NCBI GenBank assembly: GCA_965220505.1
Contig: CBDCQE010000001.1
Location: 1,519,144-1,583,143, forward strand
From: Dehalococcoidia bacterium
GTDB lineage: Bacteria > Chloroflexota > Dehalococcoidia > Lucifugimonadales > UBA3495
Reading direction: 5' to 3'
DNA: 64,000 nucleotides
Position 1 is the stretch's first letter; each line of letters starts with the position of its first letter. The translations under genes and the position numbers were made by a program. Shown here piece after piece: positions 44,733 through 51,109 of this stretch. Below the pieces are notes generated by a model. That model made no database searches. It saw only the letters and a program-made list of their open reading frames with translations, and was not told where the DNA came from.

Positions 44733-45347
44733 TCAGGGGGCCAGGGCCTCGGTAACGCCGATCATACTGTCCCGGCTCACGAGGGCGGCAAGTTCTTCCT
44801 CGCCCATGCCTTCGGTACCTTCCGGCCGACGCGGCAGCACCAGGTAACGCACGTCGGCGGTGCTGTCCAGGACGCGGACCTCCGCATCATCCGGCGGCCG
44901 GGCTCCGAACTCCGCCATGACGCCACGGGGGTCGCGGACCGCGCGGGCGCGGTAAGCCAGGCTCTTGTACCAGTCCGGCGGGCGACCGAGCAGCATCCGC
45001 GGGTAGCAAGAGCAAAGGGTACACACGACCATGTGATGAACGTCATCAGTGTTTTCGACCACGGTCAGGTGCGGTGTTTCCTCGGGAATCGCGATGCCCA
45101 TCTCGGCCAACGCGGACCGGGAGTCGGCCAGCAGACGGGCCTTGAACGCAGGATCGGCCCAAGCGTGAGCGACGACCCGTGCGCCGTCAGCCGGCGTGCG
45201 ACCGTCCATCAGATTCACCTGTCGCTGTACCTCATCGGCAGTGAGCAGTCCCTTTTCCGCGAGCAGGGCTTCAATGGCCACGGAGCGCAGAGCCACCTCA
45301 CTCATGGGCTCGTCGTGGATGTGGTCAACAATGTGGGTTGCGGTCAT
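44733..45347 (-). CDS. Cobalt-type nitrile hydratase alpha / thiocyanate hydrolase gamma-like subunit
   Basis: GARVVA.AW.DP.FK.RLL, VVCTLCSCYPR metal motif, DSTADVRYLVLP.RP.GTEG, RDSMIG. Confidence 0.93.
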   Translation of the reverse strand: MTATHIVDHIHDEPMSEVALRSVAIEALLAEKGLLTADEVQRQVNLMDGRTPADGARVVAHAWADPAFKARLLADSRSALAEMGIAIPEETPHLTVVENTDDVHHMVVCTLCSCYPRMLLGRPPDWYKSLAYRARAVRDPRGVMAEFGARPPDDAEVRVLDSTADVRYLVLPRRPEGTEGMGEEELAALVSRDSMIGVTEALAP

Positions 45348-45431
45348 ATTTCTCTCTCCGATGTCATGCGGGAACTGCTATGGGTCACAACGGATTGTAC
45401 TGGCGGGCAATCACCTTTGGGAATACAACCT

Positions 45432-46535
45432 CTAGTTGTGACAGCCCCGTGCCTCGATTTCCCAAACCGTCTCCACCATTCCGTCGCGTATGCCGATGAA
45501 ACGATCCCACCGGCTGACCATGGCGTCCTGCTGGCCGGGAAGCAGCACTAGCTGATCGCCAACGGCCAGCTCGGCTCCCTCCGCCACCCGGAACACCGTG
45601 CGGTCGGTGTTCATATCTACGGGTTCGACTCCTGGACGACCCTCCACTCGCGGCAACCCCTTCATGCCGCCCACGGCCCGCGCTCCAGCATCGCCGATCG
45701 CCATTCCCGGACGTGGGACACTGATGATGGACGACAGCACCTTGCCAGCCAAGTGAAAATCCTCCATGTATTCGTACGAGGTTTCCATCACCAAGTAGGA
45801 GCCACCCTGGATTTCGGTGACTTCCGGCATATCCCCGGCGATATCGTAGCTCCAGGTCTCGCCCGTCGATACGATTTCGACCGGCAGGCCGTCGGCGAGC
45901 ATCGCTTCCCTGAGATCCAGAACCGGCTGGATGAGATGGTGTGCTTCGGTGGTCCGGTCCTCCAAGTCCCCAGAGGGTTCCGCCATCATCTGGTGGCTCA
46001 TCACGCCTTTCAGGGAGAGCCCGGGCAGCGAGTCAATCAAACGGGCCAGTGCCAGGCCGGTTTCCGCCTCTTGCACCCCGCACCGGACCAGTCCGGTTTC
46101 CTGCTCGATCACCACGCCCAGATTGATGCCCTGTGAGGAGGCGGCCTGGGAAAGATCATGGGCGTTCGCTTCGTTTTCGCACGCGACCAGGATCTCGGCC
46201 TGGTCCGCCAGGGCGCAGAGCCGGGCGATCTTCGGCGGGGCAACAACCTCGCTGGTAACGAACACGCTGGGCACGCCACCCTGCACCATCACCTCCGCCT
46301 CGGCGACCTTGGCGGCGCACACCCCGCCTATTGTGCCGCCGCGCTCGATCTGACGCAGTGCAATGGCAGGGCTCTTGTGATTCTTGCTATGCCCACGCAA
46401 CTTGCTATGGCGATCGCCATAGAAATCGGCTATCACATCCATGTTGTGATCCAGAGCATCCATGTCCAGGATCAGGCATGGGGTATCCAGTTCCGCGATC
46501 GGAGTGCCGGGTTGGGGTTCATGGGTTTGCGGCAT
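45432..46535 (-). CDS. Fold-type III PLP enzyme (DSD1/D-threonine aldolase-like), PLP lysine present
   Basis: LDTPCL.LD, LRGHSKNHKSP, CAAKVAEAE, RCGV, TEIQGGSY. Confidence 0.85.
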   Translation of the reverse strand: MPQTHEPQPGTPIAELDTPCLILDMDALDHNMDVIADFYGDRHSKLRGHSKNHKSPAIALRQIERGGTIGGVCAAKVAEAEVMVQGGVPSVFVTSEVVAPPKIARLCALADQAEILVACENEANAHDLSQAASSQGINLGVVIEQETGLVRCGVQEAETGLALARLIDSLPGLSLKGVMSHQMMAEPSGDLEDRTTEAHHLIQPVLDLREAMLADGLPVEIVSTGETWSYDIAGDMPEVTEIQGGSYLVMETSYEYMEDFHLAGKVLSSIISVPRPGMAIGDAGARAVGGMKGLPRVEGRPGVEPVDMNTDRTVFRVAEGAELAVGDQLVLLPGQQDAMVSRWDRFIGIRDGMVETVWEIEARGCHN

Positions 46536-46603
46536 GGACGTACCTCCGAGGTTCCTGCATCTCTGATCTAAACTTGTCGCGAATATTGATAGGGGAGTTG
46601 GGA

Positions 46604-47776
46604 CTATCCCAGTTGTCCCCGCCCGGCGACCCGCCAGTAGCCCACCAGCTTGCCATCCCGCACGGCGCGGATGTAGTCATACTGATTGACACACAGGGCA
46701 AGGTTATACGGAACCAGGTGGACCTTGTCATTGGGCATCAGCCGCTCGGTGGCCGGTCCCTCCAAATCCAGGATCCCGTGCTCGGCGCTGAACCTGGAAG
46801 CGACGGCGCCCTCGAATGCCTCCAGAACGGGCACACCGAAATCCGGCCCGGTGGTCTTGTGACCGGCGTCTACCACCGCCCGGCCGGCCACGGGATGGCT
46901 GATGACCGTAGCCAGAACACTGGCCGCCGGCTGAAATTCCGGACGGATTCGCAAGGTCTCCATGTCCATCAGGGGATACACGCCAGCCTGTACCTCAGTG
47001 ATCCCCGACAGTTGGGAGACCGTATCGTAGTTGTAGGTGCCGCCCGCGCTTACCGTAGCAATCTCAAACCCGGCCTGCTCCAGGTCGCTTCGCGTGTCCA
47101 GAACCGGCTGCAACCGGCGGCGGGTTTCGGCCTCCAGTTCCCCATGGTCCGCGATGGGCAACGGGCCCTCATAGGTCATGATCCCCTGGAAGGACAGTCC
47201 GGGAGCGTTGGTGACGGTACGCGCCAGGTCAACCACGTCCTGTCCGGGCGCCACACCGCCAAACCCGTACCCGGAGTCCATGTCCACCACGATGCCCAGA
47301 GCGACGCCGGCGGCCTGCGCCGCCTCCGAAAGGTCCTGGACGTTACGGGCGTTGTCCACGGCGACGCTCAGGGTAATGCGGCCGGCCAGGACGACCAGTC
47401 GGCTGATCTTGGCGGCGGTGACCACCCGGCCCGCTATCAGGATGTCGTCAATCGCGCGGTGACGTGACTCAGCCCCAGCGTCATCGGATATATCCTCGCC
47501 GGCGGCAAATGCCTCTGCTTCCGCCAGTGAGCCGACCGCCACGCCACCGGAGTTGTTTGCTGCAGCGAGCTGGAACTGCACTATTTCAGGGCAGCCATGA
47601 CAGGAAACATGAGGACGAACCGAGACCCGGCCCGTGCCTGACCCATCGCCCGAGCCGGCAATTGCGTCGTGCAGGACCGCGATGTTCTGCTCCATCACCC
47701 CCAGATCGACCACCAGGGCCGGAGTATCCAGTTCCTCGGCGGGGGAGCCAATGGGCTGAAATATCGGTCGCTCCAT
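46604..47776 (-). CDS. DSD1/D-threonine aldolase-like paralog lacking the PLP lysine
   Basis: LDTPALVVD, RPHVSCHGCP (no Lys), SAGGT, TEVQAGVY, DAGHK, SAEHG. Confidence 0.82.
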   Translation of the reverse strand: MERPIFQPIGSPAEELDTPALVVDLGVMEQNIAVLHDAIAGSGDGSGTGRVSVRPHVSCHGCPEIVQFQLAAANNSGGVAVGSLAEAEAFAAGEDISDDAGAESRHRAIDDILIAGRVVTAAKISRLVVLAGRITLSVAVDNARNVQDLSEAAQAAGVALGIVVDMDSGYGFGGVAPGQDVVDLARTVTNAPGLSFQGIMTYEGPLPIADHGELEAETRRRLQPVLDTRSDLEQAGFEIATVSAGGTYNYDTVSQLSGITEVQAGVYPLMDMETLRIRPEFQPAASVLATVISHPVAGRAVVDAGHKTTGPDFGVPVLEAFEGAVASRFSAEHGILDLEGPATERLMPNDKVHLVPYNLALCVNQYDYIRAVRDGKLVGYWRVAGRGQLG

Positions 47777-47824
47777 GGTTCATCTACCTCTCAATTGCAG
47801 CAATGGCCGGCAAGATAGCACAAA

Positions 47825-48124
47825 TCAGGCGGGCTCAAGCCAGTGCTGGTACACGTCGACCAGCAGGGTGTCCGCCGGATTGCCAGCGTAGTCGGACCAG
47901 AGGTCGGTCTGACGCAGGCGAATGCGATAGAGAGGTTGACGCGGCAGGCCATCACCGCCGTGGGCCAGCGATTCGGGGTTCGGGTAAACCCCGCAGAGAG
48001 CATCAACGGTGCCGGTGTGCCCCTGGATGTAGGCCGGCGTACGGAAATGGTGCGCCGGGTATCCGACACGAACACGAACGGAGGCGCCGTCGGGGTAGTG
48101 GACTGATTCGGCGGGGGTGGTCAT
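47825..48124 (-). CDS. Nitrile hydratase beta C-terminal half (SH3-like; ScnA-like)
   Basis: VRVR...P.HHFRTPAYIQG.TGTV, PESLAHG, LYRIR....LW, VDVYQHWLEPA. Confidence 0.88.
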   Translation of the reverse strand: MTTPAESVHYPDGASVRVRVGYPAHHFRTPAYIQGHTGTVDALCGVYPNPESLAHGGDGLPRQPLYRIRLRQTDLWSDYAGNPADTLLVDVYQHWLEPA

Positions 48125-48150
48125 CGTTGATCCAGTGAATTAGGATTGCG

Positions 48151-48576
48151 CTATTGAAAGCGCTGTTGCAGTATAACGCTCAGTTGGGATGGCGTGACAA
48201 TCGGGATTTCAGATTCGTCCTTCAGCACCAAGAGATCGTCATCCCGAGTAACCAGATAGTCTGCTCCTGCTTGGTAGGCGAGAACCAGGAACATCTGGTC
48301 GTTGGGGTCGCGGCATTGCGGCGTTTCCGGTGGCGTGTCGGGTACTACAATCCTTTCACAGTAATCTAGGTAGGCGGCAGCGACGTTTAGTATCTGGTCT
48401 TCCTCGATCTCGAACCTGTGGCTGTGCAGGGTTCGGATTAATTCTGCCTCAGTCTCATCGCTGACGAGCGGCACAATGCGTTGCTGTTCCCACGCATCAC
48501 GAAGCCATATGTCGTTGCTGCCTGACCTGGTAATTGGCATCAACACCGCATTGGTGTCCAACACCGGCCGTATCAT
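48151..48576 (-). CDS. PIN-family putative toxin (TIGR00305-like)
   Basis: VLDTNAV, CRDPNDQMFL.LA....ADYLVTRDDDLL. Confidence 0.88.
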   Translation of the reverse strand: MIRPVLDTNAVLMPITRSGSNDIWLRDAWEQQRIVPLVSDETEAELIRTLHSHRFEIEEDQILNVAAAYLDYCERIVVPDTPPETPQCRDPNDQMFLVLAYQAGADYLVTRDDDLLVLKDESEIPIVTPSQLSVILQQRFQ

Positions 48577-49676
48577 TGACTGCTTCTTTTCGCCCGGGCT
48601 TCCGCTATGGCAGCGCGAATATCCTCCTCGGTTAGTTCCAAGGCTTGAAGCCGTCGCAAAGCCGCTTTGACCAGTTCCGGATCGCTCCGGCGCGTCCTGT
48701 TGGAGTTTCTGAACGCTATGATGTCGCCCAAGTCGTTGGCGTTACTGCTGCGCAGCGTCTTGCCGAAGCTGTTGCGGAGAACTTGCCACGTTTGCGCCGG
48801 CGGGAAGTTTTCCTGGTGCAGAACTAAAACCGCGTCAAATACCCTGAGATCGGGCAGGGTGATTGCCTCCCAATCCGGCGCATACAGAAATTCCCGGTTG
48901 TGCAGCGCGAGGCAGTATCTGGCCCCATTCAGCGCCCCGAGCTTGCTCGCCTTGCTGCCGTGGCTTACGGCGGCGTTGAGCGCCATTTGGAGCACGTCGG
49001 GACCGTCGGGTACTTGAGGCAGCGGCGCGGTCAGCTCCGCCAACTGCTCACGGATGCTCTTGCGCTCTTTGGGGTGTCCGACGGTGAGGTGCGAACCCTC
49101 GGCGTCGATGCGCAGTTCGGTGAGCTCGAAGGCCCATTCTCTGCCATCCACCGTAGCCCGGTAGTCGATGGGATCGTTTATGTCCGCACGGTCCCACGCG
49201 ACGTTGACGGTCAAACCCTGCTGAGTAAGGAAAGCAACTGCTTTCCGCATGAGGTCATATTCAGCAAGTTCTTGAGGCGTCATGGCATCGAGCTTAATGA
49301 CGGCGCGGGTTCTTTCCGCCACCAGGTCGGCGATGGGTATCGCTGCCTCCCGCAGGGTTTGCGCTACGGCGATGGGATCGGTTACCTCGCTCCAAACGAC
49401 GATGGGCGTGCGGGAGTGGGCAAACTCAGGCTCGCGGCTTTTGATGTACTGCCCCACGTCCTTCATCAGCAGTGCCCAGCCGTAAGTTCGGCTTTTCTCC
49501 TGTTGGTGGGTTTCGCCAGCCTTGAACTCATCCCTGGCCTGTTGGAGCGCGCTGAAAGCATCGCACCCATGCCCCGGTGTTGGCACAGTGCTGGCGACAA
49601 TTTCCGCCGCCCGGCCGATTACCGCTGCGGCGAAGTTGGCGTTGATGGCTGGGGTGTTGCCTCTTGTAGTGGCCAT
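48573..49676 (-). CDS. Hypothetical protein coupled to the PIN gene; antitoxin-like C-terminal helix
   Basis: ATGA overlap; DPIDY....DG..WAFELTE; ends LTEEDIRAAIAEARA. Confidence 0.65.
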   Translation of the reverse strand: MATTRGNTPAINANFAAAVIGRAAEIVASTVPTPGHGCDAFSALQQARDEFKAGETHQQEKSRTYGWALLMKDVGQYIKSREPEFAHSRTPIVVWSEVTDPIAVAQTLREAAIPIADLVAERTRAVIKLDAMTPQELAEYDLMRKAVAFLTQQGLTVNVAWDRADINDPIDYRATVDGREWAFELTELRIDAEGSHLTVGHPKERKSIREQLAELTAPLPQVPDGPDVLQMALNAAVSHGSKASKLGALNGARYCLALHNREFLYAPDWEAITLPDLRVFDAVLVLHQENFPPAQTWQVLRNSFGKTLRSSNANDLGDIIAFRNSNRTRRSDPELVKAALRRLQALELTEEDIRAAIAEARAKRSSQ

Positions 49677-49767
49677 GGCACTTCTTCGCGAACGTGCGCT
49701 TGCGGGCTTTGCGCTCGTATCCCATTTGTTACTGGGAGGAGTGCGGATTGTCGACGAAACATCTTTC

Positions 49768-49959
49768 TTATTTGGGCGCCACGAACAGCAAAATCGCCAG
49801 CCCGGAAGCTAACGGTATTACACCGACGACTATAGTCAAAATGGTACCCAAGACATTGTCCCATTCATCAAACATGGCCTTGGACACCAGCCCAAACAAG
49901 CCAATGCAAACGATCAACAGTCCGACCGCTGTCAGTGTATATCCTACGATGCCAAGCAT
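49768..49959 (-). CDS. Small two-helix membrane protein
   Basis: 63 aa with two hydrophobic segments; GAGG RBS; starts 8 bp after the upstream stop. Confidence 0.5.
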   Translation of the reverse strand: MLGIVGYTLTAVGLLIVCIGLFGLVSKAMFDEWDNVLGTILTIVVGVIPLASGLAILLFVAPK

Positions 49960-49967
49960 GCCTGCCT

Positions 49968-50288
49968 CTACAACCCCCGCTCCCGCAACTCGGCGGCTTT
50001 GGCATCGATTTCTTCCGCCGTCAGTATCCCCTTTTCAATCAGCAGGATCTCCAGCGCGGCGGTCCACTTTTCGTAATAGGACAACTCCTCGTAGCGTTCC
50101 GGCGGCAGGCTCTCGATGGCGCGGCGCATCTCGTCGGTGGTGCGGATGCCCTGCGCTCCCAGCACCTGGTGGACGGCGTCGACCCGCCGCTCCCAGTCAG
50201 AATATTCGTGCTCGCTGCGGTCGATGGGGGTGTCGTCGGGCCAGCCTCCCCGGTCGTGTGCTGCGGGCTTGGACCTGTCATCAGCCAT
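49968..50288 (-). CDS. Nitrile hydratase beta N-terminal half (ScnB-like)
   Basis: HDRGG, WERRV, DEMRRAIE.L....Y...SYYEKW..AL..LLIEKG. Confidence 0.88.
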   Translation of the reverse strand: MADDRSKPAAHDRGGWPDDTPIDRSEHEYSDWERRVDAVHQVLGAQGIRTTDEMRRAIESLPPERYEELSYYEKWTAALEILLIEKGILTAEEIDAKAAELRERGL

Positions 50289-50290
50289 TG

Positions 50291-51109
50291 CTACGCTCCG
50301 TTTTCCCACATGTCGGCTACGTCCACGGCGCGCATGAAGCGAACGCCGGGGAAGGTCTTGATGTACTCGATCAGTCGCTCCAGCATGAGCAGGCGGCCGG
50401 GTCGCCCGATGTACTGCGGGTGCATTGTCAGGTTGAAGCAGCGGCCGTAACGGTAGATCCCACGGAACTCCGCCGCCCAGCTTTCAAACACCTCATCGGG
50501 GTTGCGCATCGGGCCCAACCGGTTGGCTGACGGAGCGTAGGCGAAGTGCGGCGCATCATCGAGAAGCCAGTGGATGGGCAGTTCAACTAAGTCGCGGGGC
50601 GGGTCGCCGCCCTGCACCAGGTAAGGCGCGTCGTCGCCCATCAGGCTGCTGTCGTACTGGAAGTTGTGCTTGGCCAGGAGGTCCAAGGACACGGGACTGA
50701 GTTCCCAGCTTGGCGAACGATAGCCGACGGGCGCCACGCCCGTGAGGTCACCCAAGATGCCGATGCCCTTGATCAACACCTCCTCCTCTTTTTCGGGAGA
50801 CATGGTGGCCGGGGGTTCGTGGATGTAGCCGTGGTGCGCCACCTCGTGACCCCGACCGGCGATCTCGCGCACGAGGTCGGGATGTGTTTCGGCCACGTAT
50901 CCGGGGATGTAAAAGCTGCCCGGGATGCCCTGGGCGTCCAGCATGTCCAGGATGCGCGGCGTGGCGACGCTGGGGCCGTATTCCGCCATGGACAGCAGGC
51001 TGGGATAGTTGATGAAATCGGGGTTCCGATTCAGCCAGGAGGTGATGCCGTCCACGTCAAATGTGATGAGGGCAACACAGCGGATGTCCTCGGGCCAGAT
51101 GCCAGACAT
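50291..51109 (-). CDS. Polysaccharide deacetylase family (CE4, PgdA/PuuE-like)
   Basis: ITFDVD, EYG, HEVAHHGYIHE, GYRSP, YDSS, LTMHP..IGRP. Confidence 0.9.
   Translation of the reverse strand: MSGIWPEDIRCVALITFDVDGITSWLNRNPDFINYPSLLSMAEYGPSVATPRILDMLDAQGIPGSFYIPGYVAETHPDLVREIAGRGHEVAHHGYIHEPPATMSPEKEEEVLIKGIGILGDLTGVAPVGYRSPSWELSPVSLDLLAKHNFQYDSSLMGDDAPYLVQGGDPPRDLVELPIHWLLDDAPHFAYAPSANRLGPMRNPDEVFESWAAEFRGIYRYGRCFNLTMHPQYIGRPGRLLMLERLIEYIKTFPGVRFMRAVDVADMWENGA

Follow-up and report, generated by a model that had tools for sequence, protein, structure and literature searches.

Two adjacent genes in a 64,000-nucleotide stretch of a Dehalococcoidia genome (the window) encode sister paralogs that are likely to form an obligate heterodimer with one composite active site. 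Gene B lies upstream of gene A on the minus strand, with a gap of 68 nt between them:

45432..46535, minus strand: gene A, predicted catalytic, Lys-bearing subunit of 367 aa with Ala_racemase_N and D-ser_dehydrat domains
46604..47776, minus strand: gene B, Lys-less subunit of 390 aa, predicted supplier of the trans loops, with an invariant N-terminal MERP

Both proteins pass the Pfam cut-offs of PF01168 and PF14031, and they are the sole two members of this family in the source genome. They share 30% identity. The best solved relatives of both by sequence are BhcC and the D-threonine aldolases (DTAs). D-serine and D-threo-3-hydroxyaspartate dehydratases match both proteins more weakly than DTA does, alanine racemases rank far below DTA and BhcC in sequence and structure matches, and the ESM Atlas matches belong to the same Pfam family only. 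Against the NCBIfam BhcC equivalog NF045642, the two proteins score 247.5 and 188.1 bits, below the curated cut-off of 690. A Pfam search of A and B found no match to the C-terminal domain of alanine racemase, the domain that carries the trans catalytic Tyr. The named relatives of the pair come from Dehalococcoidia and SAR202-cluster genomes. The alignment-based model of B has a pLDDT of 94 and TM scores of 0.87-0.90 to DTA and BhcC; in this predicted model B is an intact, complete fold-III protomer.

The fold-type III DSD1-like enzymes AxDTA (4v15) and BhcC (6qkb) have the same two domains as A and B. In those enzymes one gene encodes a dimer that has two sites and a divalent metal bound by His and Asp, whereas in the A-B pair two genes divide these functions. 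According to the accessible part of the AxDTA report, the barrel protomer contributes Lys59, Arg157, Tyr187, Thr233, Gln249, Gly251, Ser252, and Tyr260 to the site, the second protomer donates loops 295-298 and 319-323, the Mn ligands His347 and Asp349 act in cis from the barrel side, and Arg157 binds PLP O3' and the substrate carboxylate (PMC4401734). When these residues are mapped by alignment, the barrel set falls in A and the second-protomer loops fall in B. Specifically, the Lys, Arg157, and phosphate ligands are kept in A, and the trans loops are kept in B. The preliminary description had assumed that each site of this fold is built from two subunits, and the loops that AxDTA takes from its second protomer in the accessible part of the report are exactly those that B keeps (PMC4401734). 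All the motifs that it quoted are present, namely HSKNHK (with Lys51), AKVAEAE, RCGV, DAGAR, NTDRT, and PGQQD in A and HVSCHG, FGG, DAGHK, SAEHG, and PYNLA in B, and alignment to AxDTA and BhcC puts them where it had placed them.

Conservation was scored on 80 representatives, to which 181 distinct pairs were reduced; these pairs came from 226 loci or genomes, each carrying a single A and a single B. The active-site positions of the two genes are as follows:

46383..46385, minus strand: A Lys51, Schiff-base lysine by alignment (AxDTA Lys59), 80/80 in A
46083..46085, minus strand: A Arg151 (AxDTA Arg157), 80/80 in A and 41/80 in B
45990..45995, minus strand: A His181-Gln182, with His in place of the ring-stacking Tyr187, His in 80/80 in A
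45858..45860, minus strand: A Glu226, in place of the phosphate-loop Gly232, 80/80 in A
45525..45533, minus strand: A Gln335-Gln336-Asp337, remodelled cis metal motif (AxDTA His347-x-Asp349), Asp in 79/80
45678..45692, minus strand: A DAGAR, degenerate trans loop 1, with Arg in 49 and Lys in 16 of 80 at the Lys position
45600..45611, minus strand: A NTDR, degenerate trans loop 2 by conservation counts
47603..47605, minus strand: B Ser58, at the Schiff-base Lys position, Lys kept in 4/80 B
46856..46870, minus strand: B DAGHK, intact trans loop 1 (AxDTA 293-297), Asp, Gly, and Lys each 80/80
46778..46789, minus strand: B SAEH, intact trans loop 2 (AxDTA 320-323), Ala, Glu, and His each 80/80

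The two chains are conserved in mirror image. Besides Lys51, Arg151, His181, and Glu226, the residues His49, Lys76, Glu79, Glu144, Gly245, and Tyr247 are present in all 80 A chains. At the trans positions, by contrast, A keeps Lys286 in 16, Glu311 in 33, and His312 in 60 of the 80 representatives, with a basic residue at position 286 in 65/80. The loss of the A trans loops is complete in the source genus and partial family-wide. In B, Asp303, Gly305, Lys307, Ala331, Glu332, and His333 are invariant, and the residue in place of the Schiff-base Lys is in most cases Glu, Ser, or Gly. Both sets are retained in single-gene relatives, where Lys59, Lys297, Glu322, and His323 are each present in 45/45. 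This reference set includes one locus from the unpublished genome G256, on which alone no claim depends; L128, which had scored as B, is a single-gene Lys-bearing protein and was placed in the same set.

Mean entropy over nine cis PLP/metal sites is 0.49 in A versus 2.15 in B, and over nine trans-loop sites it is 1.87 in A versus 0.63 in B. Random position sets matched these differences in 0 (cis) and 1 (trans) of 20000 draws, figures that are not independent-sample p-values because the pairs are kin. The mirror-image conservation of A and B is not chance. Within the genus, purifying selection acts on both genes: across 120 comparisons among 16 sequences, the median dN/dS is 0.078 (A) and 0.156 (B). 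In family f108 (L271-L274), B has barely recognisable barrel motifs, and DCGQK, MSAEHG, and the N-terminal MERP are intact; these chains are too diverged for reliable capture by the B profile.

Retention is also coupled between the chains. In the four pairs whose B keeps the Lys and the Lys76 equivalent, A carries Lys286, Glu311, and His312 (4/4), compared with 2/76 of the remaining pairs. The four Lys-keeping B chains form one clade (0.995), so the coupled pairs may represent a single event; their partner A chains branch early. The two chains thus retain or lose the second composite site together, which is what a heterodimer would lead one to expect. In one lineage (L119, L253, L260, L288, and L307), the Schiff-base Lys survives in B and both trans loops survive in A; judged from its motifs, this lineage likely has a two-site heterodimer and represents an evolutionary intermediate. 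For the 80 pairs, phylogeny dominated the inter-chain mutual information, which yielded no usable contacts.

The complete fold of B, its invariant N-terminus, and some retained barrel residues (Gly265, Tyr267, Asp271, and His60) would also suit two independent proteins of one pathway, B being for example a PLP or ligand binder or a Lys-independent homodimeric enzyme. A homodimer of B, however, would place invariant loops over a barrel with random PLP ligands (entropy 2.15), and retention of the Lys in B tracks the loops of A. We consider such independence very improbable.

The distribution of the genes is consistent with an obligate partnership. In the source order, 83 of 151 genomes have both genes, 68 have neither, and none has only one. 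B was listed among the matches in 78 of the 83 A-bearing genomes and was found, as a diverged form, by inspection in the other five. Among the 68 pair-less genomes, 18 have single-gene Lys-bearing enzymes only, and a threshold of E 1e-40 gave no match in the other 50, where a lone B might have gone unseen if very diverged, because one such B (G391) escaped the same listing. In the source genus, 16 of 24 other genomes have the tandem pair and eight have neither gene. The preliminary description had turned on whether either paralog often occurs alone: neither does so in the order, and the reciprocal losses recur across the 80 pairs.

The pair travels as a two-gene unit. A lies downstream in 45 of 47 B loci, the exceptions being one contig end and one A elsewhere in the genome, and B lies upstream in 76 of 80 A loci, the other four starting at contig ends. 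Linkage alone cannot explain the co-retention, because ten genomes from at least three families, including G173 and G461, keep A and B far apart. Outside the order, A-type genes occur with B in three further families (among 301 class genomes, where about 40 single matches are unclassified by motif), and A was found in 0/400 other genomes of a phylum-wide draw. B-A pairs are also present in one Gammaproteobacteria MAG chromosome and in Ca. Entotheonella palauensis (L125 and L136), which may reflect transfer or mis-binning. One genome (G407) has two complete B-A pairs. Both genes are represented among metatranscriptome contigs from relatives, and some of these contigs run across the B-A junction, although DNA may be present in these samples and the contigs do not establish a transcript.

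A second A without an adjacent B occurs in five genomes of family f21 and in G396, each of which also has a linked pair. Loci of this kind are L277-L282, L083, and L276, the last two on short or cut contigs. Such extra copies, together with the partly retained trans loops of A, would fit a prozyme-like arrangement, in which A, with its altered loops, would work as a homodimer and B would be a pseudoenzyme that binds, stabilises, or regulates A and gives no catalytic residues. An A homodimer stays conceivable because the A loops are relaxed, not erased, in many lineages, and co-occurrence alone suits any obligate partnership. AxDTA itself was earlier reported to be active as a monomer, according to the accessible part of its report (PMC4401734), so the trans loops are perhaps not strictly required in the family. 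However, the very parts that B conserves, also in chains with a collapsed barrel, are the trans active-site loops, and the same loop residues are invariant in single-gene relatives and variable in A. The prozyme-like arrangement is therefore improbable in our judgement, although it deserves more weight than independence of the two proteins.

A and B probably descend from one duplication, because they are sister clades that exclude the single-gene relatives. In a quick tree, the A clade (100) and the B clade (99) are joined at an SH-aLRT support of 98, with single-gene relatives outside; in an independent FastTree run of 206 rows, they are joined at 1.0. The total branch length is 40 for B versus 24 for A, and B has evolved faster than A. 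The duplication and reciprocal subfunctionalisation put forward in the preliminary description are thus supported by the sister clades, the strict co-occurrence, the mirror conservation, and the cross-chain coupled retention.

P0291 and P0266 fall outside the A and B clades and have one-sided motif loss, perhaps as independent splits, to judge by their motifs; P0291, which carries PAQCD, has neither trans loop, and this protein with its A-like loop loss has no close match in the 301 class genomes. At L066 (G206:C31:65670-67979), tandem Lys-bearing enzymes both have the trans-loop Lys and Glu-His, which by sequence is a separate duplication without reciprocal loss. A single record, P0245 (359 aa), has B residues 1-279 fused to an A N-terminus and is possibly a deletion or an assembly error.

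In the source genus, the pair is flanked by the genes for beta-C and alpha of a cobalt nitrile hydratase (NHase) operon with a split beta subunit:

44733-51109, minus strand: split-beta cobalt nitrile hydratase operon, with the pair inside it in the source genus
50291-51109, minus strand: NodB-type deacetylase
49968-50309, minus strand: nitrile hydratase beta-N
48573-49676, minus strand: gene of 367 aa, between the two beta halves in some genomes
48151-48576, minus strand: PIN gene, between the two beta halves in some genomes
47825-48124, minus strand: nitrile hydratase beta-C
44733-45347, minus strand: nitrile hydratase alpha, with CTLCSC

NHase alpha genes are present in 86/151 genomes of the order. 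This location, and the faster evolution of B (branch length 40 vs 24), could be taken to mean that the pair is an accessory part of the operon or that B is a decaying pseudogene. A functional role in the NHase operon was rejected: NHase alpha is present in all eight members of the genus that lack the pair, and elsewhere among the genomes compared it does not adjoin the pair, whose neighbours in other lineages are tsaD, CoA-transferases, FTHFS, and various others. Decay of B does not accord with its dN/dS of 0.156 and invariant loops. We give these two explanations almost no weight. No conserved neighbour pointing to a substrate was found across the pair loci compared; the neighbours are inconsistent, with FTHFS at 40 loci (mostly of one lineage and on the opposite strand), 5-formyl-THF cyclo-ligase at nine, and RidA at seven. 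A promoter and terminator scan returned chance-level results.

The active site predicted for the pair differs from that of AxDTA. A has His for Tyr187, Glu for Gly232, mostly Gln for His347, and, by alignment, no counterpart of the base His193. Single-gene relatives have Tyr at the ring-stacking position in 45/45 and Gly at the Gly232 position in 41/45. At the position of His347, A has Gln in 57, Tyr in 15, and His in 4 of 80, while the Asp349 equivalent is kept in 79/80. In A, the pyridine N is partnered by Glu in 47/80 and by Gln in 33/80. B keeps neither metal ligand, a loss that is expected because His347 and Asp349 act in cis; in place of the His-x-Cys metal motif of the dehydratases, A has Q/Y-Q-D and B has none. 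The preliminary description had stated that the metal motif is altered in both proteins. This is correct for B and for the His of A, but not for the Asp that A keeps. Its further step from the altered motif to new chemistry is better argued from the invariant His181, Gln182, and Glu226 of A. The retained Asp337, together with the gain of the invariant His181 and Glu226, suggests a remodelled, perhaps metal-free, aldol or elimination chemistry.

A homodimeric analogue of such a remodelled site may exist. Specifically, in the Lys-bearing subfamily of L290:2009-3136 and P0258, the ring-stacking residue is His, the pyridine-N partner is Asp, and the His-x-Asp/Cys metal motif is absent; L290 has no paralog within about 2 kb.

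We propose that A and B form a head-to-tail heterodimer with a single active site. The A barrel would hold PLP on Lys51, and the DxGxK and SAEH loops of B would close this site in trans, while the mirror site, made of the B barrel and the A loops, has decayed in most lineages. We infer that A and B probably associate physically as such an obligate, one-site dimer. The alpha-carboxylate would be held by Arg151 and the backbone of B Ala331 (AxDTA Asp321). His181, perhaps activated by Glu226, could act as the base that replaces the Mn/His347/His193 machinery; another option is a harder metal site of the Mg type made by Glu226 and Asp337. According to the accessible part of the AxDTA report, the alanine racemase variant Y265A, an engineered aldolase, is proposed to use the His at the position of Tyr187, the ring-stacking position, as the base of a metal-free retro-aldol reaction (PMC4401734). 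A shares this ring-stacking His and has lost its His metal ligand. The Y265A aldolase is an engineered homodimer, however, and the mechanism in A is drawn by analogy only.

The reaction is somewhat more probably than otherwise a retro-aldol cleavage or beta-elimination of a D-beta-hydroxy-alpha-amino acid. This reaction is favoured because the site is remodelled in a conserved way and because His is the proposed base of the metal-free engineered aldolase. A real heterodimer with a chemistry outside the aldolase and dehydratase classes (a racemase, a decarboxylase, or a non-hydroxy beta-elimination) is rather unlikely, and the weight we give it overlaps with that of our preferred explanation. 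The His stacking as in alanine racemase, the Glu at the pyridine-N position in 47/80, the lost His347, the missing counterpart of the base His193, and the invariant new Glu226 would all be compatible with such a chemistry. Every solved close relative, however, is a beta-hydroxy-amino-acid aldolase or dehydratase, and the alanine racemase C-terminal domain was not found in either protein.

PLP-dependent heteromers with one lysine-bearing subunit are known from fold type I. In SerTA (Ser4/Ser5) of Serratia sp. ATCC 39006, as in the A-B pair, tandem genes include one without the PLP lysine and the active site lies at the interface, according to the accessible part of the report (PMC11726168). SerTA differs in that it has fold type I, Ser4 is truncated, and Ser5 has a complete fold, with no reciprocal loss described in that part (PMC11726168). 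Unlike the SerTA proteins, A and B are both full length, and each lacks the half that its partner keeps. Eukaryotic SPT1/SPT2 (LCB1/LCB2) is a PLP heterodimer from a homodimeric ancestor with the Lys on one subunit and presumably a single site, but, as the accessible part of the source describes, it has fold type I, is membrane-bound, and contains further subunits (PMC6148460). As in the SPT and SerTA systems, the Lys-less paralog here is conserved, co-occurs with its partner, and keeps the residues donated in trans. The paralogs of trypanosomatid deoxyhypusine synthase, to go by the title of a paper, reportedly complement each other reciprocally in a shared site. Deoxyhypusine synthase is NAD-dependent, and its fold is unrelated to that of A and B.

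In fold type III, a review of PLP-enzyme allostery mentions, in its accessible part, no heterodimer other than the ODC-antizyme complex (PMC9081730). Among the literature matches listed, from a search outside which most subscription journals and supplements lay, there was no fold-III heterodimer of the A-B kind; within the same reach, no literature was found on a SAR202 D-threonine aldolase or on a heterodimeric D-threonine aldolase. The accessible main text of the SAR202 pangenome paper contains neither 'aldolase' nor 'serine' (PMC6946804). The A-B pair is strongly supported as a two-gene enzyme, a fold-III variant of the one-site PLP heteromers known in fold I. A broader proposal is that the pair is the first natural fold-III obligate heterodimer to arise by reciprocal loss and acts as a metal-free His181/Glu226 aldolase or lyase on an unrecognised marine D-amino acid, as the natural counterpart of the engineered alanine-racemase aldolase. 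This conjunction is tentative and somewhat less likely than not.

A and B are each auto-annotated as 'alanine racemase' or '3-hydroxy-D-aspartate aldolase', whereas the prediction is of one enzyme that is active only if the two are co-expressed. If this is true, single-gene screens would miss a widespread SAR202 enzyme. More than half of the genomes sampled from this SAR202 order (83/151) carry the pair. The proteins sample a natural series of homodimer-to-heterodimer evolution, and, if the prediction holds, living lineages with two sites, with one site, and with a partner reduced to hardly more than its loops would capture the whole evolutionary path. The remodelled site might also offer a metal-independent D-aldolase scaffold for biocatalysis. 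SAR202 bacteria have been proposed, in the accessible part of the pangenome paper, to degrade chirally complex organic matter (PMC6946804), and the invariant non-canonical active site of the pair points to an uncharacterised PLP reaction in this abundant clade.
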